A stretch of 44,340 nucleotides of DNA from a phage: the NCBI GenBank assembly GCA_030393635.1, contig GCA_030393635.1_4352.1, one strand, 5' to 3'. The notes beneath the pieces were generated by a model. That model saw only the letters and a list, made by a program, of their open reading frames with translations. It was not told where the DNA came from and did not search any database. Shown here piece after piece: positions 1 through 31,321 of the stretch (its first letter is position 1; the number at the start of each line of letters is the position of its first letter). Position numbers and translations under genes: made by a program.

Positions 1-91
1 ATCAGATACTTAAGATATATGCCGCCGATGAGCATAGAGCTTGCCCAGGGCAACTGGAGATACTTAGGAAGGAAAGTTACGATAATTCTCG
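1..91. repeat. Terminal redundancy or circular wrap: 1..91 is repeated at 44250..44340
   Basis: Direct comparison of the first 91 nt with the last 91 nt of the window shows the same sequence. Confidence 0.9.
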
Positions 92-230
92 TGTTCAGTA
101 AGCCTGCTGCTTAACCCTTTGCTTAATGCACGGGTTAAGCATTCTTACAAGGTGAACAGGAATCAAAGTAACTAAGATATAGAAGCACCTTAAACGAAGA
201 TTTTCATAATGTCAATAGGTGCGATTATGT

Positions 231-259
231 TTGATTTCCCATTATTCGCAATGTATACT
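231..259 (+). promoter_or_regulatory. Sigma70-like promoter for the plus-strand early operon
   Basis: TTGATT (231-236), 17-bp spacer, TATACT (254-259), about 33 nt upstream of the ATG at 292. Confidence 0.45.
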
Positions 260-291
260 TGGTTTCGTTAACTGATAATGAGGGTTTGAGA

Positions 292-462
292 ATGACGCAG
301 AATGAAGTGGCTGAGCGTATCGGGGTTACTCGTCGCACGCTGAATAACTGGTTAAAGAGTGGGAAGTTCCCTGATTGCTGTATTCGCATTATGGGCCGCC
401 GTCAGCCGGGTACGTTCGACCCGGAGAAAGTGGAAGCGTGGATTAAGGAGAATGTGAAATGA
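292..462 (+). CDS. Small HTH DNA-binding protein (MerR/AlpA/excisionase-like fold)
   Basis: ORF 259..462 with ATG at 292 preceded by GAGGG; the EVAERIGVTRRTLNNWLKSGKFP segment reads as a helix-turn-helix. Confidence 0.6.
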   Translation: MTQNEVAERIGVTRRTLNNWLKSGKFPDCCIRIMGRRQPGTFDPEKVEAWIKENVK

Positions 463-692
463 CCGAATTTCAGTCACGCGTATTTACGGCAGTCGTTTCG
501 TTAACACGTAAAAAAGGGTCGTGCAGCGTTATCGACTTGCGCCGTAGTTATTTTAAGTACTATAGTTCAGCCATTATTGAAGGGTCGTTGGAGGTACTGG
601 TTAAATCCGGTATCGTGAAAAATGTTGGCGGGAAATATAGCGCCGTTGCTGAAGTTCGCGGAATGACCGCTACTTTAGAAGACCTGGAATAA
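459..692 (+). CDS. Hypothetical protein with acidic C-terminal TLEDLE tail
   Basis: 77-aa ORF; its ATG overlaps the upstream stop (ATGA); C-terminus is TATLEDLE. Confidence 0.5.
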   Translation: MTEFQSRVFTAVVSLTRKKGSCSVIDLRRSYFKYYSSAIIEGSLEVLVKSGIVKNVGGKYSAVAEVRGMTATLEDLE

Positions 693-751
693 AAGAAAGC
701 CCCGACGCGGTGAACGCCGAGGCCAAATTACTTGCTGAAGGAATACACGAT

Positions 752-2992
752 ATGTCCGATGTGATTTTATCCTACTCGTGGTCCCGTCGCAACGCGCGGG
801 CAGAGAAAAAGGATATAAACGTCAGAACCACACACACAGCAACACTTGACGACCTGAAAGAGTTAATTCAGCCGCTAGATGCTGTTCGTGACGGGATTAA
901 CCCTAAGACTGCCCCCGGCTATATCACAGCCGCGTGCGACTCTATGCACAGCACCGTAAAAGACCCGGAAACCGGCGACTTTAAGCAAGCGCGCAAAGGC
1001 TTCTTCTATCGCTGCGACGCGTCTGTAAGCAAATCGTCGCTGGCGTATCTGGACTTCGACAGTGCGACGCCGGAAGAGTATCAGGAAGCTGTGCGTCTGG
1101 TTAAGCGCAGCCGTAAAGCCATGTGCCTCTACACTACGGCATCGCATACCGACGAATCGCCGCGCTTTCGCGTCGTCATGCCGCTGGTGCGCCCGGTTGA
1201 AGGCGGTGACATCATCCGTGTTCGCCATGGATTACTTGAGCACTTCTTCAAAGGCATGGGCGCTGACCGCAGCGGGTTCACTCTTTCGCAACCGATGTAC
1301 CTGCCGCCGGTCGGCTCTACCGTTATCTGGTCGCGCCGCAACGACCTGATTGACCCGGACGAGTTACTGGAAGGCATCCCGACCGTTGACGTTAGCAGCG
1401 CATCGGATTACCAGATACCGGAAGAACTACGCACCGCGTTTACTGACGCGTTCGAAGCACTGGCGTTCGAGTACGGCGGCATCATGACACCGCGTGGCCT
1501 AAAAATGCCAGCCACACCAGAGCATGCAGAAAACTACAGCGACCCGACGCCGCGTCCGGACGACTTCCTGCTGTGTTTCCCGCGTGAAGGATATGAAGCG
1601 CCGAACGTAACCATGATCCACGACACCGACATTACGGCGACCGAAGGCATGTCGCCGAAAGAGGTGTGGAAATACGCGTGCGATGCGACCGGGCTGCCGT
1701 TCAGTGAAGTCGCTGAGGCAATCGGCTGGGGTGCGCGAGAGTCCGTTTCATGCAGCCTTGACGACCTGGAAGACGACGAGGACCCAGAGGAGGACGAGTT
1801 ACCTGAACCGGTAAAGGCTGATTTTGTCGTCGAGGGGTACATGCCGTCGGATTGTATCTGGGACATCGTGGGGGAATCTGGCACGTACAAATCGTTCTAT
1901 ACGCTGGGGATGATGTACCTGAGCGCCGCCGGATACCGGTTTGCGGGTGCGGATACGCAACGTTGCCACCATTTCTATATTGATGGGGAGGGTGGTGCAG
2001 CTACACGCACCCGTATTGATGCGCTCGCAGCTAAGTATGGCGAGGAAGGTAAAGATTATGTACATGTCATCGATATGGGTGAAGTCGGAAAACTGAAAAG
2101 CCTGATTAAGTTGATGCGTGAAACTGCAGGCGACGAACCAATCGGCATGGTCGCATTCGACACCCTCAACCAGACGCTGGCCCTGACGATTGATAAGTTC
2201 GACGAGAACAGTTCATCGACGGCAATCGGCATGGGTAAAGTTATTGCCATCCTGAAAGAAGTACGTGATGCGACTAAAGCCGCGGTAGGCGTTGTCCACC
2301 ATACGCCGAAGGGCGGAAAGAAAGCCCGTGGTAGCGGGGCGCTGTATGCGGGTGTTGACGTGGAACTGACAATTGAACGTGCAACCGACCGTCAAATAAA
2401 CGTATACCACTCAAAATTTAAGCACGGGCCCCAACAGAAGACCGTTGGCATGGTGCTTGAGTCGGTACAGTTCCGTGAAGCGCCGCCGCCGAAAGAGTAC
2501 CGCGCGGTTGAGTTCCTCGGTAGCACAGAGGAATACGGCCCAATCGTAAACCTCGACCTGCCTGAGCCGCACAAGGCGCTTGTGCTGATGCCGTGGGGCT
2601 TCGAGCCGTTCAAAACTGACGAGGAGAAAGAGCGGGAAGAAGGGCTGACAAAGGAAGGTAAAGAAAACGTAAAGAATGCTGTAAAACGCGGGAAGGATGA
2701 AGGGCGTAAGGAATCAATACTCGCCGCACTGGAAGACCTGCAACAGTCCGATGACACCGGACGAGGTTTTACGCAACGGCAGATAGTGGCGAACTCAGGC
2801 GACCACGCCATCACAAACTACCATCTTGAGAAGATGCTGAAAGACGGTGAGTTGATGCTCGGGTGCGATGTTAACGGTGAAGTTATACCAGGCACATACC
2901 GGATACCGGAAAAGATGGGTGACAGATTAAGGCCAAAGACAATATACGAGCCGAATGAAATGCTGACAGTGACAGAGGAGGATTTGGAATAG
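752..2992 (+). CDS. DNA primase/helicase (N-terminal primase-like region plus RecA-fold ATPase)
   Basis: ORF 710..2992 (GTG at 710; ATG at 752 has GAAGGA 9 nt upstream). Walker A GESGTYKS, Walker B-like VAFDTL, VVHHTPKGG motif; acidic linker DDLEDDEDPEEDE; C-terminal TEEDLE. Confidence 0.75.
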   Translation: MSDVILSYSWSRRNARAEKKDINVRTTHTATLDDLKELIQPLDAVRDGINPKTAPGYITAACDSMHSTVKDPETGDFKQARKGFFYRCDASVSKSSLAYLDFDSATPEEYQEAVRLVKRSRKAMCLYTTASHTDESPRFRVVMPLVRPVEGGDIIRVRHGLLEHFFKGMGADRSGFTLSQPMYLPPVGSTVIWSRRNDLIDPDELLEGIPTVDVSSASDYQIPEELRTAFTDAFEALAFEYGGIMTPRGLKMPATPEHAENYSDPTPRPDDFLLCFPREGYEAPNVTMIHDTDITATEGMSPKEVWKYACDATGLPFSEVAEAIGWGARESVSCSLDDLEDDEDPEEDELPEPVKADFVVEGYMPSDCIWDIVGESGTYKSFYTLGMMYLSAAGYRFAGADTQRCHHFYIDGEGGAATRTRIDALAAKYGEEGKDYVHVIDMGEVGKLKSLIKLMRETAGDEPIGMVAFDTLNQTLALTIDKFDENSSSTAIGMGKVIAILKEVRDATKAAVGVVHHTPKGGKKARGSGALYAGVDVELTIERATDRQINVYHSKFKHGPQQKTVGMVLESVQFREAPPPKEYRAVEFLGSTEEYGPIVNLDLPEPHKALVLMPWGFEPFKTDEEKEREEGLTKEGKENVKNAVKRGKDEGRKESILAALEDLQQSDDTGRGFTQRQIVANSGDHAITNYHLEKMLKDGELMLGCDVNGEVIPGTYRIPEKMGDRLRPKTIYEPNEMLTVTEEDLE

Positions 2993-2999
2993 GGAAAAA

Positions 3000-3022
3000 G
3001 AAAGGGGCGTTAAGCCCCTTCA
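3000..3022. terminator. Hairpin between convergent genes
   Basis: GGGGC-gttaa-GCCCC stem-loop with A-run upstream and TT downstream. Confidence 0.5.
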
Positions 3023-3225
3023 CCAAACGCCAGCCACTTGGCGTCTACTTGCAGCACTTCTGCCAGTCTAAACAGCGTCGCAGGGCGGACGTCCTGAGTT
3101 ACTCCGAGCGCAAGCTGGTTAATTGCGCCCTGGGAAACGCCGGCCAGAACAGCCAGACGGCGCTGGGAGATTCCGAGTTCTTTACGGCGTTGTTCTACAC
3201 GGATGCCTAGTTCAGATGGTTGCAT
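3010..3225 (-). CDS. XRE-family (Cro/CI-type) HTH transcriptional regulator
   Basis: 71-aa ORF; ISQRRLAVLAGVSQGAINQL is a typical XRE HTH; AAGGAG RBS 7 nt upstream of the ATG on the minus strand. Confidence 0.8.
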   Translation of the reverse strand: MQPSELGIRVEQRRKELGISQRRLAVLAGVSQGAINQLALGVTQDVRPATLFRLAEVLQVDAKWLAFGEGA

Positions 3226-3256
3226 GTCAATTACTCCTTAGTTAGTTTATATGTGA

Positions 3257-3318
3257 ATAGTACCATATTAATTATTTTAGAAAAGCCCATTGACATCATG
3301 AATAGTTCGCTATTATAG
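3257..3318. promoter_or_regulatory. Divergent promoter/operator region between the XRE regulator and the small ORF at 3352
   Basis: Minus strand: TACTAT -10 overlapping palindrome AATAG-TACC-ATATT (3256-3269). Plus strand: TTGACA (3290-3295), palindrome AATAG-TTCG-CTATT (3301-3314), -10-like TATAGT. Confidence 0.55.
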
Positions 3319-3351
3319 TGAGCCTATACTAAACGAGAGGAGAGAAGCAAA

Positions 3352-3501
3352 ATGACCAATAACCGCAAAGCAAAGATTCTGTTAGGCCTTGATGTCGCAT
3401 TTGGAACTAAAGAAACCGCGCGCTATCGCGTAAGCAACAATCGTGTTGGCTTCTTCGACAAAGTGACAGGCCAGTTAGTTAAAACCGTTAAATATAAATA
3501 A
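3352..3501 (+). CDS. Small hypothetical protein (49 aa)
   Basis: ATG at 3352 preceded by strong SD GAGAGGAGAG; not in the ORF track because it is under 60 aa. Confidence 0.5.
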   Translation: MTNNRKAKILLGLDVAFGTKETARYRVSNNRVGFFDKVTGQLVKTVKYK

Positions 3502-3516
3502 ACAGGAGAACAAATA

Positions 3517-4008
3517 ATGTTAGAGAAATTCTTAGTATTAATTGAGCGTGGTGTAGTTGCACTTGAACTGATTGCCGCGAACAGTGTGAAACAACCGGTG
3601 TATGAACTTAAGGCAGAGGCAAAAGTAGCCGATAAGGTTCGTGATGTTGTTGTAAAAGAAGCAACAAAAGAAGTCCCGGTCGAAGGTGAAGACATCGTTG
3701 ACACTAAACCGGCAGAAGAAGAAGAGAAGCCAAAACGCAAGCCGCGTAAAGCTAAAGTAGAGGAGCCAACGCCAGAGCCGGAGGAAGAGAAAGAAGAGGT
3801 CGATTACCAGTCTCTTCGTGACCAGATTCAGGCTATCGACGATGCGATTAACGAAGGTCCGAGCGATGCCGCGTGCGATGATTCCGATGAACTGCTGGAA
3901 GAGTTCACCGGTAAGAAAATGAAGATTGCCGCGATTAAAGACGAAGACCTGGCTGAATATCTGGAACGCCTGACTGCAATCAAGAACAAGTATTTCGAAG
4001 AAGAATGA
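3517..4008 (+). CDS. Acidic K/E-rich hypothetical protein
   Basis: 163-aa ORF with RBS AACAGGAGAA; long acidic/lysine-rich low-complexity segment. Confidence 0.6.
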   Translation: MLEKFLVLIERGVVALELIAANSVKQPVYELKAEAKVADKVRDVVVKEATKEVPVEGEDIVDTKPAEEEEKPKRKPRKAKVEEPTPEPEEEKEEVDYQSLRDQIQAIDDAINEGPSDAACDDSDELLEEFTGKKMKIAAIKDEDLAEYLERLTAIKNKYFEEE

Positions 4009-4023
4009 TTTATCAGCGGCCTT

Positions 4024-4046
4024 CGGGCCGCTTTAACTGAGGGTAA
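4024..4046 (+). terminator. Intrinsic terminator
   Basis: GCGGCC-ttcg-GGCCGC stem followed by TTT. Confidence 0.55.
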
Positions 4047-4050
4047 AGAA

Positions 4051-4323
4051 ATGATTTACCAACTCTACCGCGCCGTAGATAGGCGGGATAGCACAGAGGC
4101 GTTGTGGCTATTACGTGCGCCGTCTGGTGCGCACCTGATGGAAGAGATGGCGTACTTAGGCAAAGTGCCACGGCCTAAAGATATAGGCCGTCACGTGTCG
4201 CAGATTAAGCGCACGACTTTCGCAAAACCAGACTTTTATGTCTTCGAGTTGATGTATGGGTGGGCGATGCACTGCCATCACCAGACGCGACATTTAATCG
4301 ACCAGTGGGAGAACAGGGTATGA
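4051..4323 (+). CDS. Hypothetical protein
   Basis: 90-aa ORF with upstream GAGGG. Confidence 0.5.
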   Translation: MIYQLYRAVDRRDSTEALWLLRAPSGAHLMEEMAYLGKVPRPKDIGRHVSQIKRTTFAKPDFYVFELMYGWAMHCHHQTRHLIDQWENRV

Positions 4324-4469
4324 CAAGGTACGCGATAATCGTAGAAATAGACGGTAAAGACCAGGAGCATAGTCGCTACGCCCGTTTGGATGAAGCTAGG
4401 TATGTCTTCTATACATTCGGATTCGAACGCAGTTTCAATAATGCGCGTATTGTGGAGATTACGAAATGA
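4320..4469 (+). CDS. Small hypothetical protein
   Basis: In-frame ATG at 4320 with GGGAGAACAGGG upstream; overlaps the upstream stop and is coupled to the next gene. Confidence 0.45.
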   Translation: MTRYAIIVEIDGKDQEHSRYARLDEARYVFYTFGFERSFNNARIVEITK

Positions 4470-5707
4470 TTTTAAAAGAACGCGGTGGCAATAACGATGT
4501 TCACGCCCTACTGTCACCGTCAGGCGCTAAAAAGTGGCTAAGCTGCGCCGCATCACTGGCCTGTGAAAAAGATATTCCTAACACGTCCGGCAAAGCTGCC
4601 GTATTAGGCACAGCTATGCACACCATAGCTGAGATGCACCTTAACCAGTACATCAAAGGTACTGCGTTGCCGTTAGAGCGTGAAGTCGGCGCTTACGTGC
4701 TGGATGAGGGCAAGGGCCAGATTAAGGCGCTAATCAGCCCAATTAAAGACGCGGTACTCATTACGGCGGACATGATTGAGCAGGTGCGCAAGTACACCGA
4801 CTACTGCAAAGCGATTATAGACGTGGCGACTTACGCCAAGCTGGAGATGCGCGTCAATCTTACTGAGGTATTGCATCCGGGGTATGAAGGCGTTGAGACG
4901 TTCGGAACCGCTGACCTTGTTGCCGTTCAGGAACTGGCAAACACCGACGGGCACATGCTCATTATTGGCGACCTGAAAACTGGACGGCATCGTGTCGAAG
5001 CGAAAGAAAACAAGCAGCTTATGCTTTATGCTCTCGGTGTTTATCGCCGACTCAAGAGACGCTATAACATAACAGTTGTTCGTCTGGTTATATTCCAGCC
5101 GTATGCTGGCGGTGCGTCGGAGTGGGACATCTCGGTTGAAGGTCTGGAACTGTTCGCTAAGTTCGCACGGAAACGTGCACTGTTAGCCCTTGATGCATAT
5201 TTCCGGGGCAAGAAGAACCTGAAAGCGTCGGACTTCAGGCCGTCGGTCGATGGTTGTCAGTGGTGTCGGTTCTCTGAGCAATGCGCCGTGCGTACAAAAA
5301 CCGTTAACGCGATACTGGCGGAAGAACTGGAGGGCGGCTTTGCACTCGAACTGACGCCTGAGCAACTCGTAGCTGAGTACGAGAAGTTGCCGCTGTTGCG
5401 ACAGCACATCGACAAGGTTGAAAAAGCTATGGCTGCCGCGCTGCATTCCGGTAAGAAAGTGCCTGGGTACAAACTCGTTGAGGGTAAGATGGGCAACCGT
5501 GCGTGGAAAGATTCCGATGCGGTATTCGAGAAGTACGGCGCTATGTTGCAAAAGGTAGTTCTCATGACGCCGACCGAAGCGGTTAAAGTGATACCGGAAG
5601 AAGAACTGAAAAACTTCATTACCCGTAAGCCGAGCGCACCATGTGTCGCAACGGCAGACGACAAACGTCCTGAGTGGAATCAGGTAACAGAGGAGGATTT
5701 AGAATAA
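4466..5707 (+). CDS. PD-(D/E)XK exonuclease, Cas4/RecB-like with putative Fe-S cysteines
   Basis: 413-aa ORF; N-terminal Cys (WLSCAASLAC) plus C-terminal C-x2-C-x5-C (GCQWCRFSEQC) as in Cas4-type nucleases; C-terminal TEEDLE. Confidence 0.65.
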   Translation: MILKERGGNNDVHALLSPSGAKKWLSCAASLACEKDIPNTSGKAAVLGTAMHTIAEMHLNQYIKGTALPLEREVGAYVLDEGKGQIKALISPIKDAVLITADMIEQVRKYTDYCKAIIDVATYAKLEMRVNLTEVLHPGYEGVETFGTADLVAVQELANTDGHMLIIGDLKTGRHRVEAKENKQLMLYALGVYRRLKRRYNITVVRLVIFQPYAGGASEWDISVEGLELFAKFARKRALLALDAYFRGKKNLKASDFRPSVDGCQWCRFSEQCAVRTKTVNAILAEELEGGFALELTPEQLVAEYEKLPLLRQHIDKVEKAMAAALHSGKKVPGYKLVEGKMGNRAWKDSDAVFEKYGAMLQKVVLMTPTEAVKVIPEEELKNFITRKPSAPCVATADDKRPEWNQVTEEDLE

Positions 5708-5711
5708 AGTG

Positions 5712-5740
5712 TTGACACCTGAATAGTTAGCTATTATATT
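5712..5740 (+). promoter_or_regulatory. Sigma70-like promoter with embedded palindrome, upstream of the SSB gene
   Basis: TTGACA (5712-5717), 17-bp spacer containing AATAG-TTAG-CTATT (5722-5735), TATATT (5735-5740). Confidence 0.6.
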
Positions 5741-5798
5741 TCTAACCACTGGCCGGGCAGTTCCCGGAGTAAACGAAACTTAAAAGCGAGAAATCAAG

Positions 5799-6425
5799 AT
5801 GGGACTGAAACTGAATCTGCGTAAAGTAAACACTGCATGGGTTAACGTATTCGAACGCGAAAAAGACCGCGAAAACGATGATGGCTCAATCACTAAAGGC
5901 CAGTACAGCGCAACGATTATCCTGCCGCCGGACCATGCTCAAATCGACGCGCTCTACGACACTGTTTACGCTGTAGTTGAGGGAGCGTTAGGCGCAGCCG
6001 CCGCCGAGAAATGGATGAAGTCCAACTACGGCGAAGGTAAGCACATGGATAAATGCGCGATTAAAGACATTGCCGAGCGCGACAATCCGTTTGAAGACTT
6101 CCCGGAAGGCTTCTACTTCAAAGCGAAAGCACAGAAACAGCCGCTGATTGTAACCTCTAAAAAAGGCGAGGCTCAGGTAGAGCAGGACTTCAATGTAGAC
6201 GGCGAACAGATTGAAGGTGAACAGGTTTACAGCGGCTGTGTTGCCAACGTAAGCGTTGAAATCTGGTTCAGCCAGAAATACAAAGTCCTCGGTGTTAACC
6301 TGCTGGCAATTAAATATGTTGGCGAGGGTAAAGCGTTCGGTGGTTCTAAAGTCGCCGCAAGTGTCGACGACCTCGAAGACGACGAAGATGATGAAGCACC
6401 GCGCCGCGAACGTCGTCGCCGTTAA
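5799..6425 (+). CDS. Single-stranded DNA-binding protein (T7 gp2.5-like)
   Basis: 208-aa ORF with acidic DDLEDDEDDE segment near the C-terminus, resembling the gp2.5 tail, followed by a basic RRERRRR terminus. Confidence 0.55.
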   Translation: MGLKLNLRKVNTAWVNVFEREKDRENDDGSITKGQYSATIILPPDHAQIDALYDTVYAVVEGALGAAAAEKWMKSNYGEGKHMDKCAIKDIAERDNPFEDFPEGFYFKAKAQKQPLIVTSKKGEAQVEQDFNVDGEQIEGEQVYSGCVANVSVEIWFSQKYKVLGVNLLAIKYVGEGKAFGGSKVAASVDDLEDDEDDEAPRRERRRR

Positions 6426-6443
6426 TATCTGAATCAATTTAAC

Positions 6444-6468
6444 TGAGGCCCTTTATTGGGCCTTTTTA
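6444..6468 (+). terminator. Intrinsic terminator after the SSB gene
   Basis: AGGCCC-tttatt-GGGCCT stem followed by TTTTT. Confidence 0.6.
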
Positions 6469-6636
6469 CTAAGGGTCGAAAATAATGTTTTTCTGTAAGC
6501 ACGTTTATCGCTATATGAAACCGCTTCCGTGGTACGCGGATAAGTACCGGGCCGGATACCGGCATGTGTGGATTTGCCGTGATTGTATGAAAATAAGATT
6601 AAGCGAAACGAAGGCACTGGATTTAAGGAAAAAGAA

Positions 6637-8838
6637 ATGAGCTACTTATACCTGGACTTTGAAACATTCTCCGAAGCCGATTTAAAGAAAGTCGGTTCCT
6701 ACGCTTACGCCGAACATCCAACTACCGAAGTGCTTATCTGTACCTATGCTTTCGATGACGAGCCTGTGCAGGTATGGGATTGCACCGACGGCAGCGACAT
6801 GCCGGGCGATTTGCACCGCGCGTTACGCCGTCTGGTTAAGCCAAACAGCCGCATCAAGATGGTGTGGCACAACGGCTCAATGTTCGATCGCCTCATCATG
6901 AAGCACTGCTGGGGTTTTGGTATTCCGGTAAGCAACACCATTGATACTATGATTTGGGCGTTTCGTCACGCGCTGCCGGGTTCACTTGATGCGTTATGTG
7001 AAGTGCTGGGTGTATCCGCGGACAATGCAAAAGATAAACGCGGTAAGGCACTGATTCAACGTTTTTCTAAACCGACACCGAAGAACTACAAAATCCGCCG
7101 CTACACCGCCGAAACACACCCGGACGAGTGGGCGCTGTTCATCAAGTACGCCGTGAGCGACATCACTGCTATGCGTGAGGTCTTCCATAAGCTGCCGCGG
7201 TGGGGTAACTCCGAGTTCGAAGACCGTGTACTGGAACTTGACCAGTTAATCAATGACCGTGGGTTTAAGGTTGACGTTGCGCTGGCAGAAGCCGCTATTG
7301 AAGCCGTGGAGAAACACAAAGCGCAGTTACAGGAAGAAGCCCAACGCAAATACGGCGGCTCGCTTACCGGTAAGGACTTTCTGCCGATTCTGCGTGAACT
7401 CGCACCCGCGCACCGCATCCACAACGCGCAGAAGTCAACGCTTAACGACCTGCTGGCAGATGATGACTTACCAGACGACGCCCGCACGATTATCGAAATG
7501 CGCCTCGGGGCTGCGTCAACAGCGTCCACGAAATATAACCCGCTGCTGTTGGGCCGCTCGTCTGACGACCGTCGCCGCGGCTGCTTGCAGTACGGTGGGG
7601 CGAAACGGACTCTGCGATGGGCGGGTAAAGGCTTTCAGCCGCAGAACCTGGCGCGCGGGTACTATCACGATGATGAACTGGATAAAGGCATTTCTGCGCT
7701 ACTTAAAGGTCGTGCTCATCGCCGTTTTGACGTAGCCAAGCTGACGGCATCGACGGTTCGTAGCTGCATTATCCCAGAGGCAGGGCATAAGTTTGTCGTC
7801 GCCGATTACTCTAACGTTGAAGGCCGTGGGCTTGCGTGGCTGTCGGGCGAAGAAACCGCGCTTGATACGTTCCGCGCCGGACTGGATATTTACTGTGTAA
7901 CCGCGGGCAAGATGTTCGGTATGGACCCTGATGACATTAAGAAAAACTTCAAGGAAATCAGACAGATAGGCAAGGCCTGCGAGCTTGGCCTCGGCTATGA
8001 GGGAGGCGTCGGAGCATTCGTTACGTTCGCTAAAAACTTAGGTCTTGACCTTATTGAGATGGCAAAAACAATGGACGGTACTTTTCCTGATCATATATGG
8101 GCGGCTACCGCACGTGGTTATGAATGGGCGCGTATCCAGGAAGCAAAGCGACCCCCGCATCCTGGTGAAAAGGACGACAGACCATCGTATATTCTGGACA
8201 AGAAAGTGTGGCGCACATGCGACGCAATCAAGCGTATGTGGCGTGAGTCTCATCCGGAAACAGTAGCTTTCTGGTGTGACCTTAAAGACGGAATTTTAGC
8301 CGCTGTTCGTAATCCTGGTCGTGAATTTTGGGCAGGGGCACACTTGCGCAGGAATGGGGAAAGGGCTATCCGCATATGGCGCACCGTAGAAAACGATTCA
8401 TCCGGTAGGAAAGTTCCAGGTTGGTGGCTGTGTATGGAGTTGCCGTCAGGCCGTATCCTTTCGTATCCGGGAATCGGAGTTAGCGTGACAAAGGAAACAG
8501 ACGAAGACGGACGGGTAAACACGAATGTGCGAATCAAGTATCAGGGTGAAAACCAGTTAACCCGCCAATGGACTACCCTGTACACACACGGCGGCAAAGC
8601 CTGTGAAAACATTGTTCAGGCGCTGTGCCGTGATTTGCTGGCTAATGCCCTGCTGAACGTAGAAGCAAACGGCTACCCGATTGTGCTTCATGTTCACGAT
8701 GAAATTATCTGCGAGACGCCAGATTTACCGGAATACAATGTCGCAGAGCTTGAGCGATTGATGTGCGAATTACCGGAATGGGCTGAGGGGTTCCCTCTTG
8801 TGGCAGAAGGTGCGGAGATGAAGCGTTATGCCAAGTAA
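6637..8838 (+). CDS. Family-A DNA polymerase with N-terminal 3'-5' exonuclease
   Basis: ORF 6583..8838; ATG at 6637 after AAGGAAAAAG; Exo I-like LDFETFS; typical Pol I length and layout. Confidence 0.85.
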   Translation: MSYLYLDFETFSEADLKKVGSYAYAEHPTTEVLICTYAFDDEPVQVWDCTDGSDMPGDLHRALRRLVKPNSRIKMVWHNGSMFDRLIMKHCWGFGIPVSNTIDTMIWAFRHALPGSLDALCEVLGVSADNAKDKRGKALIQRFSKPTPKNYKIRRYTAETHPDEWALFIKYAVSDITAMREVFHKLPRWGNSEFEDRVLELDQLINDRGFKVDVALAEAAIEAVEKHKAQLQEEAQRKYGGSLTGKDFLPILRELAPAHRIHNAQKSTLNDLLADDDLPDDARTIIEMRLGAASTASTKYNPLLLGRSSDDRRRGCLQYGGAKRTLRWAGKGFQPQNLARGYYHDDELDKGISALLKGRAHRRFDVAKLTASTVRSCIIPEAGHKFVVADYSNVEGRGLAWLSGEETALDTFRAGLDIYCVTAGKMFGMDPDDIKKNFKEIRQIGKACELGLGYEGGVGAFVTFAKNLGLDLIEMAKTMDGTFPDHIWAATARGYEWARIQEAKRPPHPGEKDDRPSYILDKKVWRTCDAIKRMWRESHPETVAFWCDLKDGILAAVRNPGREFWAGAHLRRNGERAIRIWRTVENDSSGRKVPGWWLCMELPSGRILSYPGIGVSVTKETDEDGRVNTNVRIKYQGENQLTRQWTTLYTHGGKACENIVQALCRDLLANALLNVEANGYPIVLHVHDEIICETPDLPEYNVAELERLMCELPEWAEGFPLVAEGAEMKRYAK

Positions 8839-8977
8839 ACTGATTATCGCGGTACTGGCGGGATTCGCCGCCGGTGTCTACTGTCACGAGGGCCAATACG
8901 GCATGATTGTCGCCGTATTGGGTATGTTCATAGCAATTTATCTGTGGGTGCTGGAATGAAAATTTACTGGTTTTATG
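8828..8977 (+). CDS. Small membrane protein (49 aa)
   Basis: ORF overlapping the polymerase 3' end; hydrophobic IIAVLAGFAAGV and IVAVLGMFIAIY segments. Confidence 0.35.
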
Positions 8978-9041
8978 AAGAAGACTGTAGAATCTGTCCG
9001 CGCTGTGGGATTGAGCATACGAAACGGGAGGGATGCGTATT

Positions 9042-9194
9042 ATGACAATGTTTGTATTCTGGACAATCGTAACCCTGCTCGCACTGTTACTCGGTGCGGG
9101 AGTAGCCGCGGTGTTCTGTTACGACCTGTTCTTTAAGTTTGTCGGTGTTGCCGTTCTAAGCGGAGCTTTCCTTACTTGGGTTCTACGCTCATGA
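9042..9194 (+). CDS. Small membrane protein (50 aa)
   Basis: Hydrophobic MTMFVFWTIVTLLALLLGAGVAAV; stop overlaps the next start as ATGA. Confidence 0.4.
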   Translation: MTMFVFWTIVTLLALLLGAGVAAVFCYDLFFKFVGVAVLSGAFLTWVLRS

Positions 9195-9475
9195 CTAAAG
9201 AGGGCCGCATACAGAAATACGCAAAAGACCGATTCGAGGCCATCGGCGGCCTCGTTCGTAAGTTATCGTACGAGGGGCGCTCCGGCGCTCCCGACCTGCT
9301 GGTAATTCTCCCCGGCAGCATAGTCTGGTTCGTCGAGGTTAAGAAAGACGAAAACACGAAGCCAGACCCGCACCAGCTACGGGAACATGAGCGGATGCGC
9401 AAACGTGGCGCGAATGTTTTTGTCGTCGGTTCGTTTAAACAGGTTGACGACCTAATAGCGAACTATTATAGTTAG
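9191..9475 (+). CDS. VRR-NUC domain nuclease (PD-(D/E)XK)
   Basis: ORF 9176..9475 with ATG at 9191; GAPDLLVI...VEVKK matches the VRR-NUC catalytic core. Confidence 0.65.
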   Translation: MTKEGRIQKYAKDRFEAIGGLVRKLSYEGRSGAPDLLVILPGSIVWFVEVKKDENTKPDPHQLREHERMRKRGANVFVVGSFKQVDDLIANYYS

Positions 9476-9505
9476 TCCTACACCAACAATATAAGGAATT
9501 GAGAA

Positions 9506-9697
9506 ATGAAACACGAATATGACCGAAAACCAGCACGTGACATCGTACCGGGCGACATGATTTTCAACGTTAAGACACGCCAGCCTGTTGCCGTTGATAC
9601 GGTGTTCGTCGAGTCGAACGGTAAACTGGTTATCGAAGATGTAACGGGTAACGTTACCGCGTTTGGACGTAAAGAGTTAGTTCTGGTGGCTAAATGA
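9506..9697 (+). CDS. Hypothetical protein
   Basis: 63-aa ORF with AAGGAATTGAG RBS. Confidence 0.5.
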   Translation: MKHEYDRKPARDIVPGDMIFNVKTRQPVAVDTVFVESNGKLVIEDVTGNVTAFGRKELVLVAK

Positions 9698-10716
9698 ACT
9701 ATTACAACGAATGGGATAAAGGCGCAGCCGCGTGGCTGCGTGAGTTGATAAAACAGGGTCACATACCTTTTGGAGTTGTAGATGAAAGAAGCATTACCGA
9801 AGTTAAGCCAGAAGACCTTGACGGGTTCACCCAGTGTCATTTTTTCGCTGGTATCGGCGGCTGGCCTCTCGCGCTCAGACTTGCGGGAGTTTCGGAAGAT
9901 ACGCCTCTCTGGACGGGAAGCCCGCCTTGCCAACCGTTTAGCGCGGCAGGAAAGCAACTCGGACAGTTCGACCCAAGACACCTCGCGCCTGTATTCCTCG
10001 ACCTCATCAGCGAGTGCCGCCCTCCAGTCCTCTTTGGGGAACAGGTTGCGCCAGCAATTGCAAAATCGTGGATGTGCGATTTACAAACTCACCTGGAAGG
10101 AGAAGACTACGCCGTCGGGTTTGCCGTACTCCCAGCTTGTAGCGTCGGCGCACCGCACAAGCGCGACAGATTGTTCTTTGGAGCGCATAGACTGGCCCAC
10201 ACCCGCAGTATCACCGATAACAAACGATGTGAATATGCGCAGTACAGACGGCAGAACGAAACCGAACAAACTGGGTTGGGCCGCTGCGATGGCGGCATGG
10301 CCCACTCCGACGACACGCGACCACAAGGACGGGAAAGAGTGCCTGAACGTGCCAACGAACAGTCTGCTGGGGCGGGAAGTGTGGAAAGCAAGTTGGCCGA
10401 CGCCACGAAGCGCCGACGGGGAGAAGAATGTCCGGACACTGAACGGCGCGTTGTCCGAGATTCAGAGGAAGGGTGGGCCCCAGGACGTGGCACAAGCGGC
10501 GGCTATAACACAACCAATACGCATAACGGCTTCTGGTCAGATGCTGACTGGCTCGGATGCCGGGATGGAAAATTCAGGCCAGTTGAATCCGGAACATTCC
10601 CGCTGGCTAATGGGATACCCGCCAGAGTGGGACGATTGCGCGGTTACGGCAATGCCATCGTCCCGCAAGTAGCCGCTGAATTTATAAAGGCATTCATGGG
10701 GGCGGTAAATGAGTAA
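9694..10716 (+). CDS. DNA cytosine-5 methyltransferase-like gene with apparent frame disruption (see finding)
   Basis: Frame 1 carries FFAGIGG, PCQPFSAAGK, FGEQV, GAPHKRDRLFFG and the C-terminal GNAIVPQVA; the overlapping frame 2 (9782..10672) carries three WPTP motifs and RWLMGYPPEW. Confidence 0.6.
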   Translation: MNYYNEWDKGAAAWLRELIKQGHIPFGVVDERSITEVKPEDLDGFTQCHFFAGIGGWPLALRLAGVSEDTPLWTGSPPCQPFSAAGKQLGQFDPRHLAPVFLDLISECRPPVLFGEQVAPAIAKSWMCDLQTHLEGEDYAVGFAVLPACSVGAPHKRDRLFFGAHRLAHTRSITDNKRCEYAQYRRQNETEQTGLGRCDGGMAHSDDTRPQGRERVPERANEQSAGAGSVESKLADATKRRRGEECPDTERRVVRDSEEGWAPGRGTSGGYNTTNTHNGFWSDADWLGCRDGKFRPVESGTFPLANGIPARVGRLRGYGNAIVPQVAAEFIKAFMGAVNE

Positions 10717-12133
10717 GTTCCAAAGGCGCGAGTACCAAAAGCTCATGACTTCGTTCATGTTGCAACACCCGCGCTGTAATATCTGGGCTAGCATGGGTGC
10801 AGGGAAGACGGGCAGCGTATTGTGGGCATTAAACCGCCTGTTCCGCAACGGCCAACTTAATGACGACGACCGTGTGTTAATCCTTGCCCCGTTACGAGTT
10901 GCATCCTGTACGTGGCCTGCAGAGCAAGAGAAATGGCGGTTCCCGTGTCTGAGTGTCGTCGATGCAACTGGTTCAGAGAAGCGCCGTATCGCGGCGCTGG
11001 AGTCAGACGCTAACGTGGTCTGTACAAACTACGAAGTTATCGAGTGGCTGATTGACTACTACGGCAAAGACGACTGGCCTTTTACGGTTATCGTTGCCGA
11101 TGAAAGCACGAAGCTGAAGTCATTCCGTAGTCGTTCTGGCGGGAGTAAGCGAGCGAAGGCGCTAAGTAAGGTGGCGTTCGGAAAGGTTAAGCGTTTCATC
11201 AACCTGACAGGTACACCATCACCAAACGGCCTCAAAGACTTGTGGGGCCAGAACTGGTTTATCGACGCTGGCGAGCGCCTGGGTTCTTCATACACCGCGT
11301 TCACCGACCGATGGTTTAACTCTGTGCAGAAAGGCAAATCAGCGATGGCGCGTGAGTATCATGCGCGACCGGGTGCGGATAATGAGATTCACCAGAAGAT
11401 GAAGGACATTAGTCTCACGATTGACGCCGCCGAGTGGTTCGGGTGTGAAGCGCCGATTATCGTACCGGTTGAAATAGACCTGCCTAAGAAAGCGCGCCAG
11501 GCGTACATAGATATGGAGGAGAAGCTATTCGCAGAACTGGAGAGCGGGGAAGTTGAAGCGGCTAACGCCGCGGCGAAGACGTCAAAGTGTCTGCAGATTG
11601 CATCCGGTGCTGTATATGTATCGGGGCCAGACGGAGAAGCAACGAAAGACTGGGAGAAAGTGCATGACACGAAACTTGATGCGCTGGAGTCAATTGTGGA
11701 GGAGTTACAGGGCGCGCCGTTGCTTGTGGCCTATCAGTTCAAGCACGAACTGGAGCGCATCCTTAAGCGATTCCCGCAGGCGCAGGCGTTCGCCAAAGGT
11801 GCTAAGGGCAATAAGCAGATGGAAGCGTGGAACCGCGGTGAAATCGAAATCTTATGCGTCCACCCAGCGTCAGCCGGGCATGGTTTGAATTTACAGGACG
11901 GCGGCCATCATCTGGCGTTCATCTCGCAAGGGTGGAACCTTGAGCACTATTTGCAGGTTGTCGAGCGTATAGGCCCTGTCCGCCAGAAACAGGCGGGCCA
12001 CGAGCGCCCGGTGTTCCTCTACCACATCGTTGCTAAAGACACGCTGGACGAGGTTGTTGCCGCCCGTACCGACGAGAAGAAATCGGTACAGGAAGAATTG
12101 CTTAATTACATGAAGAGACGAGGTAAGAAATGA
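10709..12133 (+). CDS. SNF2/DEAD-like ATP-dependent helicase
   Basis: 474-aa ORF; motif I GAGKTG, motif II ADESTKLK, helicase C-terminal region. Confidence 0.75.
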   Translation: MSKFQRREYQKLMTSFMLQHPRCNIWASMGAGKTGSVLWALNRLFRNGQLNDDDRVLILAPLRVASCTWPAEQEKWRFPCLSVVDATGSEKRRIAALESDANVVCTNYEVIEWLIDYYGKDDWPFTVIVADESTKLKSFRSRSGGSKRAKALSKVAFGKVKRFINLTGTPSPNGLKDLWGQNWFIDAGERLGSSYTAFTDRWFNSVQKGKSAMAREYHARPGADNEIHQKMKDISLTIDAAEWFGCEAPIIVPVEIDLPKKARQAYIDMEEKLFAELESGEVEAANAAAKTSKCLQIASGAVYVSGPDGEATKDWEKVHDTKLDALESIVEELQGAPLLVAYQFKHELERILKRFPQAQAFAKGAKGNKQMEAWNRGEIEILCVHPASAGHGLNLQDGGHHLAFISQGWNLEHYLQVVERIGPVRQKQAGHERPVFLYHIVAKDTLDEVVAARTDEKKSVQEELLNYMKRRGKK

Positions 12134-12309
12134 AACTTAATACAGCGTTAACAGTTTTGTGGCTATTCTGCCGAGTGGGGCCTGGGTCCGTATTATTATT
12201 GTGCGGTATCTTGGCCGAAAAAACATTTGATGCGGGCTTGATGGTGGGTGCAGGAATGATGTTGTTGGCTGCGGGCATTGCAGAATTGTATAAGGATTTT
12301 AAGAAATGA
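12130..12309 (+). CDS. Small membrane protein (59 aa)
   Basis: ATGA overlap with the helicase stop; two hydrophobic segments. Confidence 0.4.
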   Translation: MKLNTALTVLWLFCRVGPGSVLLLCGILAEKTFDAGLMVGAGMMLLAAGIAELYKDFKK

Positions 12310-12443
12310 ACATCATAGCCCCGATTCCGGCATTGCAAAAACGTATCAAGGAACTCGAAGAAGAGGTTCTACGACTACGGCAGCAAAGAGACGCAGCTAA
12401 TGCGCAACTGGCGTTTGTGCTGGAGAAGTTATCAGAAGAGTAG
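12306..12443 (+). CDS. Small coiled-coil protein (45 aa)
   Basis: ATGA overlap with the previous ORF; KELEEEVLRLRQQRDAANAQL. Confidence 0.35.
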   Translation: MNIIAPIPALQKRIKELEEEVLRLRQQRDAANAQLAFVLEKLSEE

Positions 12444-12445
12444 AG

Positions 12446-12474
12446 AAAAGGCCCCGAAAGGGGCCTTAGTTTTA
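12446..12474. terminator. Bidirectional intrinsic terminator between convergent operons
   Basis: AGGCCCC-gaaa-GGGGCCT stem flanked by A-run and T-run. Confidence 0.7.
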
Positions 12475-12475
12475 T

Positions 12476-14509
12476 TTAAATCAAACCGTATATGACGTTA
12501 TGTAAAGAGAAACTACCAGCTGACCCCCCTATCGCAAAATTTATTTCAGCGGTTAAGGCCCCAGGAGGGACGGTGTCCACGAAAGCAAAGAAAGCATAAG
12601 TAGAGGATTGCGGGATAGAGTACCCCGAACTTGACGCTACGGCGTTACCACTTTTATCTAAAAACCTAATGCTTGCAAGCACAGGCACTAACCCTTTAGC
12701 CCAAAATCCTAACTGGAAATATCGACCCGGCTCGCAATCTTCACAAGTCTGTGTGAAGTTGGCGCTCGCAGATGACGCCGGGGTAGTGACTGAAAACGCT
12801 GTCGTAAACATTTGAGTATTCGGTACGTCATTGTTTACAGATACAGTTACCGTGCCTGTACCAGTTTGCGATAGCGTCCAGTTTGAAATTGATAAGAACT
12901 GTCCTGAGCCATTGCTTAGACTGTTTATGTATGGGCTTACTATGGCCCCTAAATTCCAGTTGCTAGATATAAAACCAGCTCTAGGGTAGCATCCGCGTGA
13001 CATAACTTTTTTGCTCAAGCCGCCTACCAACTGCCGGGTAGGGAACCCGGTGGCGATGAGGGTGCTGCCGTATAACGGCAAAGAGCAATTGCTAAGACTG
13101 ACAACCCCGTCGCCATTACATACAATAGGAGCCGAAGCGTAATCAGACGGCAGAAAGACAGTCGAGTCTTTTATGCTCAGCCGTGAGCTACCTGCAACCG
13201 TGAATCCGACGAAACTTTGCCCCGGCTGGTACTCTATATTACCGTTGGCGAATACTACGTGGGCGTTATCAGAAAGTGCCAATACAGGGTCAAAGTATCC
13301 CGTTCTCTTACCCGCCGGCAGCGAGCAACCATCAAAGACGAATTGCCCGTTAGTTAACGTAAATGGTCCGCCGTTATCCACCATCCAACAGTGATTAAAC
13401 TTAATAGCCTCACCAGCGTTAGCAGGAGAATTGAAAATAACCGAGTCCGTGAAACTTCTGGACAACGTACATTTATCAAACAATACGCGGTGTGCATTAT
13501 CAAGGAACTCGACTCCGGCTGTTGAAATAAACCCACAATTAGATATTCTTAACTCTGAGACTTCCCCACTGGTAGAACCACCAATCGCCAATTTCCTGGC
13601 CCCTTTTCCAACAAATGACACTCCAGTCATTAACGCAGTTGCGTTAATTACATCTCTATTAGTGTAGTCCGTGTTTGAGTTAATAATGGTTAGGTAGTAG
13701 TCACCAGTTACGGAAGCAGATTCTGTTAAAGTACATTTATTTTTTCCGATAAGTGCGCCTTTTGCTATGTCTAAAACAATCGGTGTTGTTATCTCACCAG
13801 AAACAGGCACCACACAGTCATAACCTGCCAAATTTATTTTATTAATGTACGCGGCTAAATCTCCCGTGCCGTTAAACCCCGCGTCATACACTGTTGCACA
13901 CCCATCGAAGAATTTCCTTTTCCAGACAACACCATCACCGGGAAATGTTACGATATTATCGACATCAACTGTCGACGAAACCGCCACCATAATGCCGCCG
14001 CCTAGGTTACTGCCCGCGTAAGAATCGAGGATAATACTATCCCCCTCCGAAGCACTGACCGTAGCTAACGCCAAGACATCAGGAACGCTACCAATTAAAG
14101 TTAACCCGTCTTGGGCAGACAGGTCATCTCGCAAATTTGGGTCAGTCTGTGGCTTCCAGTTGGCATTACCAACCGGGTTAAATGACGCCGGGATAACAAC
14201 AGGCAGCGTACCTGCATACGAGTACCAAGTCCGGCTAACAGGGTCGTAGACAACTTTGTCACGGTCATTAACTGTTAACGTACCACCAGTGGAGAAGTCC
14301 CATGGCACAGGGGAAAAGCCAGCGGCACGCAACACGGCGGGGAGCGTCTTTTGGGTCTGTCCCGTAACTGCGTTGGTCGCGTAATCAATATCCGCGCCAC
14401 CAGCTACGCCGCCGGATTTACCGGTGATAACCTCAGCTTCGAAAATCTGGTGTTTCTTGGCGGTTTGCAAATCCGCCAGGCTTAAAACGTCACCGCATCC
14501 GCTTGACAT
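12476..14509 (-). CDS. Tail fibre / tailspike protein (probable beta-helix receptor-binding protein)
   Basis: 677-aa ORF immediately downstream of the tail-tip gene; G/S/T/N-rich repeats typical of beta-helix spikes. Confidence 0.65.
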   Translation of the reverse strand: MSSGCGDVLSLADLQTAKKHQIFEAEVITGKSGGVAGGADIDYATNAVTGQTQKTLPAVLRAAGFSPVPWDFSTGGTLTVNDRDKVVYDPVSRTWYSYAGTLPVVIPASFNPVGNANWKPQTDPNLRDDLSAQDGLTLIGSVPDVLALATVSASEGDSIILDSYAGSNLGGGIMVAVSSTVDVDNIVTFPGDGVVWKRKFFDGCATVYDAGFNGTGDLAAYINKINLAGYDCVVPVSGEITTPIVLDIAKGALIGKNKCTLTESASVTGDYYLTIINSNTDYTNRDVINATALMTGVSFVGKGARKLAIGGSTSGEVSELRISNCGFISTAGVEFLDNAHRVLFDKCTLSRSFTDSVIFNSPANAGEAIKFNHCWMVDNGGPFTLTNGQFVFDGCSLPAGKRTGYFDPVLALSDNAHVVFANGNIEYQPGQSFVGFTVAGSSRLSIKDSTVFLPSDYASAPIVCNGDGVVSLSNCSLPLYGSTLIATGFPTRQLVGGLSKKVMSRGCYPRAGFISSNWNLGAIVSPYINSLSNGSGQFLSISNWTLSQTGTGTVTVSVNNDVPNTQMFTTAFSVTTPASSASANFTQTCEDCEPGRYFQLGFWAKGLVPVLASIRFLDKSGNAVASSSGYSIPQSSTYAFFAFVDTVPPGALTAEINFAIGGSAGSFSLHNVIYGLI

Positions 14510-14521
14510 ATAGAGTCCTCT

Positions 14522-17077: not shown

Positions 17078-17433
17078 AATTCAATCTCCGTGTACGTGTC
17101 TTTTAGGTCCGCCAGCCTGTCAAGCCGTACCTGACGGGACGCAAGTTCACAATGACTTACCATTCCGTCGAAGTAAACTCCTGCGTGCCATATGATACGA
17201 CCCCCACGGCGATAGCCCATAAGCACCGCACAGAAGTCTTCAGGCTTATCAATTTTTGTAAGCCCCTTCGTGTTGCGATGCCCTTCGTCAAACGCTTCGT
17301 TAATCGCCGTTGGGCTTGTAACGTCAAACGCAGGGGTTTCTAACCCGGCATCCGCGCGGACAATGCGCACGTGATGCCAGCAATTGCGTTTGCGAAAGTC
17401 GTAAGGTATGCCCGTGTAGTCGTTAATATTCAT
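17068..17433 (-). CDS. Tail assembly protein (lambda gpK-like, NlpC/P60-type Cys/His)
   Basis: 121-aa ORF; RKRNCWHHV motif; position between L-like and J-like genes. Confidence 0.5.
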   Translation of the reverse strand: MNINDYTGIPYDFRKRNCWHHVRIVRADAGLETPAFDVTSPTAINEAFDEGHRNTKGLTKIDKPEDFCAVLMGYRRGGRIIWHAGVYFDGMVSHCELASRQVRLDRLADLKDTYTEIEFWR

Positions 17434-21489: not shown

Positions 21490-21596
21490 TCTTTAATCCT
21501 TTGGTTAAGAGGTTACTGGTTGATGGTGTTGCGCCAGACGGGAACCACCCGCTTTTCGTGTGCGACACTAGGCGCAAAATTATTCTATCACATTAC

Positions 21597-21626
21597 TTGC
21601 GCGCCCCAATATAATAGGGTACTATT
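21597..21626 (+). promoter_or_regulatory. Promoter with embedded palindromic operator, upstream of the Imm-like gene
   Basis: TTGCGC, 17-bp spacer, TACTAT; palindrome AATAG-GGTA-CTATT (21613-21626). Confidence 0.6.
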
Positions 21627-21655
21627 CACTTACACCGACAACGAAGGGGTTTAAA

Positions 21656-24053: not shown

Positions 24054-24084
24054 AAAAAGGCCCCAAACGGGGCCTTAGTTTTAT
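24054..24084. terminator. Bidirectional intrinsic terminator
   Basis: AGGCCCC-aaac-GGGGCCT stem with flanking A- and T-runs between convergent genes. Confidence 0.7.
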
Positions 24085-31297: not shown

Positions 31298-31321
31298 CAC
31301 ACCAACAAGAGGCGAGAAGAA

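Follow-up and report, generated by a model that had tools for sequence, protein, structure and literature searches.

An orphan 434 Cro homolog and a candidate operator set in the promoters of a virulent Kagunavirus

In lambdoid phages, Cro is a small early repressor that dampens strong early promoters later in lytic growth, and dimers of the 434 type read the two half-sites of an operator and leave its centre uncontacted. We describe here a homolog of 434 Cro, henceforth the regulator, which is encoded on the minus strand at 3010–3225 of phage contig GCA_030393635.1_4352.1 (44,340 bp; "the window" is this whole stretch of DNA), together with a palindrome, AATAG-N4-CTATT, that recurs in the promoters of the same DNA. 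Its sequence identifies the window as an essentially complete genome of a Kagunavirus (Guernseyvirinae, virulent siphovirus). The regulator probably works like Cro outside any lambdoid immunity switch, as a Cro without a CI partner whose operators are spread over the genome of a virulent phage.

The closest described system is phage 434. With 434 Cro (PDB 2CRO, 3CRO) and the N-terminal domain of 434 cI the regulator shares the five-helix, lambda-repressor-like HTH_3 fold (HTH, helix-turn-helix) and the glutamine that opens the recognition helix; like Cro it is a single domain of ∼70 residues (71 in both cases), similar over its full length. At the level of sequence, the geometry of the candidate operator also agrees with that of the 434 operators, i.e., a 14-bp dyad with conserved outer half-sites, a variable centre and overlap with promoters. 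The rest of the recognition helix (KQQSIQL in 434 Cro) and the operator itself (ACAA-N6-TTGT in 434, AATAG-N4-CTATT here) are different. The context differs as well: there is no divergent CI partner, no tandem OR1–3/OL1–3 triplets and no lysogeny genes, single operators lying instead over ∼11 promoters, and the regulator gene forms a transcription unit of its own that runs opposite to the replication genes, whereas 434 cro heads an early operon. The likeness to the lambdoid turn-off is a functional analogy, in that a small, early-made repressor would damp strong early promoters; unlike in the lambdoid phages, this would be its sole role, with no lysogenic alternative and with middle and late promoters among its targets. 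The restriction-modification controller (C) proteins (C.AhdI, C.BclI), which appear among the Foldseek matches of the regulator model, are likewise small HTH_3 dimers that act on dyads in their own promoters and time expression after entry into the cell, but there is no adjacent restriction-modification pair here and the sequence similarity is far below that to 434 Cro. The regulator was therefore rejected as a C protein itself: no endonuclease partner was detected beside it, and the sole methylase (9694–10716) is 6.5 kb away.

The repeated sequence has been reported before in another guise. PHIRE found seven copies in the Kagunavirus fBC-Eco01, with the consensus tgAATAGTa-ccTATTat-T, and these were called promoters for a "phage-encoded RNA polymerase" (PMC9825357); seven PHIRE promoters were also reported for phage Golestan (PMC7203180). 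The fBC-Eco01 consensus is the same repeated sequence as the dyad of the window, but its dyad symmetry, its placement in three registers within sigma-70 promoters and the link to an HTH protein are absent from that report (PMC9825357). The regulator gene, for its part, carries the GenBank labels "transcriptional repressor", "Cro", "DicA" and "XRE family regulator"; for the Jerseyviruses it has been counted among the core regulatory genes (PMC8425127), and yet some genome papers state that no repressor is present (PMC9787291). The motif as a dyad operator, its three-register placement and its pairing with the HTH protein are not stated in the searchable literature, from which most subscription-journal papers are excluded. 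The new part appears to be the link between an annotated repressor gene and a published motif; the proposed mechanism is conventional in kind.

The initial annotation had described a lone minus-strand XRE-family HTH gene between plus-strand replication genes, and the data agree: the open reading frame (ORF) begins with ATG, encodes 71 amino acids (aa) and is the sole opposite-strand gene within the plus-strand replication module (259–12133). Its product matches Pfam HTH_3 (PF01381) over residues 11–65 with E = 3.7e-12 and 46.5 bits, above the curated threshold of 23, and its best sequence match in the PDB is phage 434 Cro (phmmer E = 6.3e-7, residues 6–68), ahead of the N-terminal domain of 434 cI and of P22 C2. 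Aligned end to end, the regulator and 434 Cro are 43% identical. A single-sequence AlphaFold2 model (pLDDT 84) contains five helices, and its top Foldseek match in the PDB is again 434 Cro (2cro; TM-scores 0.72/0.78). Among IMG/VR proteins, the nearest ones outside the Guernseyvirinae (41–50% identity) are Cro proteins of 71 aa from lambdoid phages of the 434 type, 434 Cro itself among them. The recognition helix reads S31-Q-G-A-I-N-Q37, with Q32 corresponding to the conserved Gln28 of 434 Cro. A HipB/HigA-type antitoxin was considered and rejected, there being no adjacent toxin gene and HipB and HigA being weaker matches than 434 Cro.

The gene is under strong purifying selection, with a ratio of nonsynonymous to synonymous polymorphism (pN/pS) of 0.059 across 35 distinct Kagunavirus alleles, and is thus functional. 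Orthologs with at least 93% identity occur in ∼117 Kagunavirus records, and orthologs of ∼51% identity are found at the same position in most of the 418 records that fall below 60%, chiefly Salmonella Jerseyvirus. The ortholog of Cornellvirus SP-031 also has 71 aa and is 40% identical; in this phage (FSL SP-031, L098 10724–13749) it lies 5′ of the helicase-primase gene and is co-directional with it, a Cro-like position. A scan of 185,579 bacterial and archaeal species, with a single genome per species, gave no close homolog in any bacterial genome; the best match was 46% identical in an unrelated context, and prophage relatives were set aside for the same reason, none being closer than this. 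Klebsiella phage klb_E, which has a 45% identical protein, was rejected as a distant Guernseyvirinae relative because it is lambdoid with 434-type operators, and it was used as a positive control only. Its unannotated record (L003 9890–9980) contains a cI/cro region of the 434 type, with ACAA-N6-TTGT operators 5′ of a 73-aa Cro, and is of the temperate type.

As to lysogeny, Pfam and PHROGs scans covered 40 distinct ORFs of the window, including the regulator, nine other small ORFs and every ORF longer than 600 aa. In accordance with the initial annotation, which had seen no integrase or other lysogeny gene, these scans revealed no integrase or recombinase domain and no other lysogeny gene, and the annotated relatives BUCT825 and SETP13 have the same gene content and likewise lack lysogeny genes. 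Nor did the 40 ORFs contain a CI-type repressor, a Peptidase_S24 domain, a second HTH_3 protein, a partition system or an antirepressor, and no CI-type repressor is annotated in the relatives either. The maintenance genes and prophage copies that would mark a lambdoid lysogeny or immunity module were thus not found.

The regulator gene stands alone between its own promoter and terminator, with the helicase-primase gene and a divergent small ORF as neighbours. The terminator (8-bp stem, 5 GC pairs, tail CTTTTTCCCT) is located 9 nt past the convergent helicase-primase gene, and its presence makes the regulator gene monocistronic. At 2992–3021, the helicase-primase gene and the regulator run towards each other and share a hairpin that has a T-run on the regulator's strand only. 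Transcription continuing out of the helicase-primase operon would therefore cross the regulator gene in antisense, which might add a further level of control.

The initial annotation had mentioned two copies of the palindrome, and the number of sites in the window is far beyond chance: there are 13 with at most one mismatch against 0.98 expected, and none of 100 shuffles reached 13. In an unbiased count of palindromes of the form 5-N(0–8)-5, AATAG-N4-CTATT ranks first both in the window and in the Kagunavirus BUCT825, and the top-ranked palindrome of the Jerseyvirus SETP13 in the same count is TAATAG-N4-CTATTA. Ten of the 13 sites are intergenic, although intergenic DNA makes up 9.4% of the window (binomial P ∼ 1e-8), and the sites are conserved in position between Kagunavirus and Jerseyvirus, at homologous promoters. 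The set thus reaches far beyond the control region of the regulator, to ∼11 promoters. Within these, the dyad is found in three registers: in the spacer (class A, −25 to −12), over the −10 (class B, −19 to −6) or over the −35 (class C, −40 to −27).

In class A (3301, 5722 and 9454), the dyad occupies the spacer of TTGAC(A/G)-N17/18-TATAGT/TATATT promoters that head the replication operons and are the three best sigma-70 matches in bases 1–20000. The class B sites (21613, 31280 and 31670 on the plus strand, 42687 and 44078 on the minus strand) conform to TTGCRC-N10-AATAGGGTACTATT, with the right half-site lying within a −10 TACTAT that is 17 bp from TTGCRC. It should be noted that class B promoters score 7/12 against sigma-70 and were missed by the automated scan, so their assignment rests on fixed spacing and conservation; an alternative −10, (T/C)ATAAT, just 5′ of the dyad lacks a −35 and was set aside as less likely. 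The class B sites are embedded in an element of ∼40 conserved nucleotides, TTGCRCNCCCCAAYATAATAGGGTACTATTCACTTA, which is common to Jerseyvirus (positions 21587–21640, 31255–31305, 31645–31695, 42675–42730 and 44065–44115). The conservation of this element exceeds the needs of the −35, the −10 and the operator; the elements head mostly operons of small or accessory genes, several of them antiparallel within the structural gene block. Class C comprises the minus-strand sites 39512 and 31189, one-mismatch dyads that contain the −35 TTGACT of late structural operon promoters, the former lying 5′ of the operon of small genes, terminase and head genes. Two further sites are probable chance matches: 15418 lies within a tail gene, and 34081 has no conserved counterpart in the relatives. 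All coordinates are collected in Table 1.

Table 1. Coordinates of the regulator gene, its control region and the candidate operators in the window (a point marks features listed without strand).
Position	Strand	Feature	Basis or remark
3001–3021	−	Intrinsic terminator hairpin and T-run over regulator stop codon	Terminator scan
3010–3225	−	71-aa XRE/HTH_3 regulator gene, 434 Cro homolog	ORF list, Pfam, PDB match
3234–3239	−	Ribosome-binding site AAGGAG, 8 nt 5′ of ATG	Sequence reading; kept in 45 aligned upstream regions
3256–3269	.	Imperfect candidate operator AATAGTACCATATT, 1 mismatch, over the regulator's predicted promoter	Invariant in 35/36 Kagunavirus sequences
3257–3265	−	Predicted extended −10 TGgTACTAT of regulator promoter	Sequence reading and Jerseyvirus comparison
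3290–3319	+	Divergent sigma-70 promoter TTGACA-N18-TATAGT	11/12 consensus match
3301–3314	.	Perfect candidate operator AATAGTTCGCTATT in spacer of divergent promoter	
3352–3501	+	First gene of divergent operon, 49 aa	ORF list; PHROG 1380, E = 2e-5
5722–5735	.	Class A candidate operator in TTGACA-N17-TATATT (5712–5740), 5′ of single-stranded DNA-binding protein and DNA polymerase genes	
9454–9467	.	Class A candidate operator in TTGACG-N17-TATAGT (9444–9472), 5′ of methylase and SNF2 helicase genes	
21613–21626	+	Class B candidate operator over −10 of TTGCGC-N17-TACTAT, predicted to drive 21886–24052	Kept in L001, L002
31189–31202	−	Class C candidate operator, 1 mismatch, contains −35 TTGACT, 5′ of scaffold and capsid genes	Kept in L001, L002
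31280–31293	+	Class B candidate operator and promoter 5′ of 83-aa ORF	
31670–31683	+	Class B candidate operator and promoter 5′ of PAPS-reductase-domain ORF 31692–32522	
39512–39525	−	Class C candidate operator, 1 mismatch, contains −35 of TTGACT-N17-TATATT (39492–39520)	L001, L002 also 1 mismatch
42687–42700	−	Class B candidate operator and promoter TTGCAC-N17-TACTAT, 5′ of 41973–42656 and lysis region	
44078–44091	−	Class B candidate operator and promoter, predicted to drive leftward small-gene block (43853–44053 onward)	

Two copies of the dyad are found in the control region between the regulator and the divergent operon. The claim of the initial annotation that the divergent promoter for the ORF at 3352 overlaps the copy at 3301–3314 was borne out by a perfect dyad in the spacer of a near-consensus promoter. 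This promoter serves the second replication operon (small ORFs, exonuclease, single-stranded DNA-binding protein and polymerase). In the alignment, the half-sites of the dyad are invariant in all Kagunavirus sequences, and its centre and −35-proximal flank vary. The first gene behind the promoter is mosaic (window 3320–3520; loci L004–L049, 5′ of position 7001), with at least five unrelated coding starts among Kagunavirus isolates that all follow the same conserved promoter, operator and ribosome-binding site.

The companion claim, that the regulator's own promoter overlaps the copy at 3256–3269, stood only in part: this copy does cover the predicted −10, but it has one mismatch and the promoter is not a consensus sigma-70 promoter. 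On the regulator's strand the site reads AATATGGTACTATT and is class B-like; the mismatch creates the TG of the predicted extended −10, and the −35 is poor. In the homologous region of Jerseyvirus, a full TTGCGT-N17-TACTAT promoter is found at the same position, which supports the extended −10 reading, and the dyad there is more degenerate (two mismatches). The two dyads are spaced 55 bp start to start in Jerseyvirus (L002 32372–32442) as compared to 44–45 bp in Kagunavirus, i.e., Jerseyvirus carries an insert of 10–11 bp, about one helical turn, which supplies the −35 TTGCGT for the regulator promoter. Kagunavirus, without that −35, appears to compensate by means of the TGn of its extended −10.

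Three lines of evidence indicate that AATAG-N4-CTATT is a protein-binding site. In 95 class A sites from 36 Kagunavirus loci, the half-sites are invariant (92/95 and 93/95), the centre is represented by 17 different tetranucleotides, and the 4–5 nt between the −35 and the dyad vary both in sequence and in length; invariant half-sites flanking a free centre are the footprint expected of a dimer, as in 434. The dyad further adopts three registers with respect to the −35 and −10, unlike a polymerase-recognition element. Finally, no RNA polymerase domain or sigma factor was found among the 40 scanned ORFs, leaving nothing of the phage's own to read a special promoter.

Exact dyads were counted in two sets of loci. 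The Kagunavirus loci (460 kb) contain 154 copies of AATAG-N4-CTATT and 5 of ACAA-N6-TTGT, whereas 403 kb of loci encoding a 434-type 71-aa Cro contain 2 and 153, respectively, with 47 of the latter within 170 nt of cro. For the homologous proteins the count thus returns the 434 operators known from experiment, and for the regulator it returns a different dyad. Every Kagunavirus locus has a perfect dyad no more than 170 nt from the regulator gene, two dyads bracket the regulator control region in 36/36 of these loci (the Jerseyvirus copies there being degenerate), and the regulator gene and the dyad are conserved together in Kagunavirus and Jerseyvirus. From the operator geometry, the control-region copies, the co-conservation and the reciprocal pattern of proteins and dyads, we infer that the regulator binds the dyad.

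Several observations weigh against this assignment and its genome-wide extension. The recognition helices are SQGAINQ in Kagunavirus, SQSLITH in Jerseyvirus and TQSAISH in Cornellvirus, as compared to KQQSIQL in 434, and those of Kagunavirus and Jerseyvirus differ at 4 of 7 positions even though the half-site is the same. Cornellvirus SP-031 has no AATAG-N4-CTATT; a looser TAWTA-N6-TAATAT is enriched intergenically in this phage and is suggestive, but it is not cleanly palindromic and was rejected as a clean covarying operator. There are other phage DNA-binding proteins, namely the HTH_17 protein (259–462) and a 77-aa protein (37630–37863). At the class B promoters, the 7/12 match and the ∼40-nt conservation imply that part of the dyad could be promoter-intrinsic, and coverage of late promoters by a repressor fails by itself to explain the upper hand of the late genes. 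The divergence of the recognition helices over a common half-site would be expected if the dyad were a real operator for another factor, be it the early HTH_17 protein, another small phage protein or a host regulator, with the regulator having a narrower or different target. The predicted promoter of the HTH_17 gene (231–259) carries no dyad, as expected for a master early regulator, and its ortholog in Kagunavirus K1B4 belongs to a group of just four genes whose expression peaks early (PMC12645636). We nevertheless regard another binder as unlikely: operators of the 434 Cro family are built in this way, as 14-bp dyads whose 5-bp half-sites enclose a free centre, and of the candidates only the XRE protein is a member of that family; two dyads are also present at its control region in all 36 Kagunavirus loci. 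Moreover, we know of no dimerization module for such dyads in HTH_17/excisionase-type proteins of ∼60 aa, and of no E. coli regulator with an AATAG-N4-CTATT consensus.

If instead the repeat were an intrinsic phage promoter element read by the host polymerase, possibly in a phage-modified form, the regulator would act elsewhere. This is in line with the published "phage promoters" of fBC-Eco01 (PMC9825357), with the class B arrangement (a right half-site within the −10 TACTAT and ∼40 conserved nucleotides) and with the one-sided TAT extension of the motif, which forms −10-like hexamers. It is hard to reconcile with the three registers and with class A, where the half-sites lie in the spacer, in which there is no base-specific reading by the polymerase, yet are invariant and two-fold symmetric while their neighbours drift; the lack of a phage polymerase or sigma factor in the scans also speaks against it, and leads us to reject the published reading as promoters of such a polymerase. 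An intrinsic promoter element is in our estimate quite improbable, and we think no better of the idea that the regulator is a relic of a lambdoid immunity region that silences superinfecting relatives or supports a carrier or pseudolysogenic state. The closest outside relatives are, to be sure, Cro proteins of temperate 434-type phages of the same length (41–50% identical), and dyads on nearly all regulated promoters, late ones included, are how an immunity repressor would be deployed. Stable repression, however, normally needs a cooperative C-terminal domain, which a 71-aa protein lacks, and the scans gave no integrase, partition system, cleavable CI-type repressor or antirepressor; the 185,579-species scan gave no close bacterial homolog, and papers on the subfamily describe strictly lytic behaviour (PMC9787291, PMC9825357). 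There is, lastly, a very slim chance that the regulator is an activator at the weak class B promoters, or a dual regulator. Poor sigma-70 matches (7/12) might need help, and 434 cI and like relatives activate as well as repress, but a dyad at about −19 to −6, over the −10, is in a position for repression, unlike that of known activators, and we know of no activation surface on a protein of Cro size.

Compared with these alternatives, an orphan 434 Cro-like repressor acting on dyads in ∼11 sigma-70-type phage promoters is, as an overall explanation of the sequence data, the one we consider probable. The regulator would, like its relatives, bind AATAG-N4-CTATT probably as a dimer, and occupancy of the dyad in the spacer, the −10 or the −35 would exclude the host RNA polymerase; each position that the dyad takes coincides with a core promoter element, so that a bound dyad should mean repression. 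At the start of infection, the host polymerase would fire the class A, the class B and the regulator's own promoters. With increasing amounts of the protein and of phage genomes, the perfect-dyad promoters would be the first to be turned down. Promoters with one mismatch (the regulator's own and the two of the late structural genes) would escape until the regulator reaches a higher concentration. Early and middle transcription would thereby come under negative feedback, and the balance would move toward late genes. The regulator most likely would repress its own promoter more weakly than its other targets. Repression upon binding and the order of shut-off are deduced from the positions and quality of the dyads, and the autoregulation and "timing switch" role proposed in the initial annotation are likewise inferred.

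The one relevant time-course, in Kagunavirus K1B4, has eight time points and classes genes by peak time (PMC12645636). The regulator ortholog, gene 004 (3386–3601; 216 nt, antiparallel to the AAA-domain helicase-primase gene), is classed as "middle" together with the replication genes (PMC12645636), a coarse assignment that speaks neither for nor against a timing role. The "early HTH gene" of K1B4 was considered as the regulator ortholog and rejected, since early gene 008 (6308–6490) is, by its coordinates, the HTH_17 ortholog. We advance more tentatively, as a doubtful though possible extension, that this one partnerless 71-aa Cro-like protein gates essentially every regulated promoter of a strictly virulent subfamily through a dyad in three registers, with perfect and one-mismatch copies providing the gradation. 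If this is true, the whole temporal programme amounts to the host polymerase plus a single dose-dependent brake, and the regulator supplied in trans should give cross-genus "immunity" against Kaguna- and Jerseyviruses.

The remainder of the window is in keeping with its assignment. A 2-kb stretch around the regulator gene matches 444 phage records at 80–95% identity, nearly all of them Escherichia Kagunavirus and Salmonella Jerseyvirus. The exact repeat of positions 1–91 at 44250–44340 is a short terminal repeat or else arose where the assembly of a circularly permuted genome overlaps itself; it marks the window as one complete genome. The scans yielded the gene set expected of a virulent siphovirus: helicase-primase, PD-(D/E)XK exonuclease, Enc34-type single-stranded DNA-binding protein, family A DNA polymerase, cytosine methylase, SNF2 helicase, terminase, portal, Mu-F-like head protein, tail tube, tape measure, tail and tail spike proteins, and lysozyme, among others; the ORFs longer than 600 aa are the helicase-primase, the family A DNA polymerase, the tape measure, the tail protein and the tail spike. 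The HTH_17 (excisionase-like) gene at 259–462 heads the helicase-primase operon and is a second candidate regulator. GC-rich hairpins of nearly the same sequence (AAGGCCCC-loop-GGGGCCTT), each flanked by T-runs on either side, are found at 12448–12467, 24057–24076 and 32527–32547; situated at switches of gene orientation, they look like bidirectional terminators that insulate modules. The PAPS-reductase-domain ORF (31692–32522) and the cytosine-C5 methylase (9694–10716) each lie directly behind a dyad-bearing promoter and possibly have DNA-modification functions.

The Guernseyvirinae (Kagunavirus and Jerseyvirus) rank with the phages isolated most frequently for use against E. coli and Salmonella in therapy and biocontrol, and they serve as small chassis for engineering. 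Their transcription programme is essentially undescribed: genome papers ignore the regulator gene, label it a repressor or deny any repressor, and the recurring motif was mistaken for the promoter of a polymerase that these phages do not encode. A repressor-operator pair over most promoters would provide a testable model for how such phages order gene expression without a polymerase or sigma factor of their own. It would also explain why a repressor-like gene need not mean temperate behaviour in safety assessments, and would offer a compact, orthogonal switch for the engineering of Guernseyvirinae phages.

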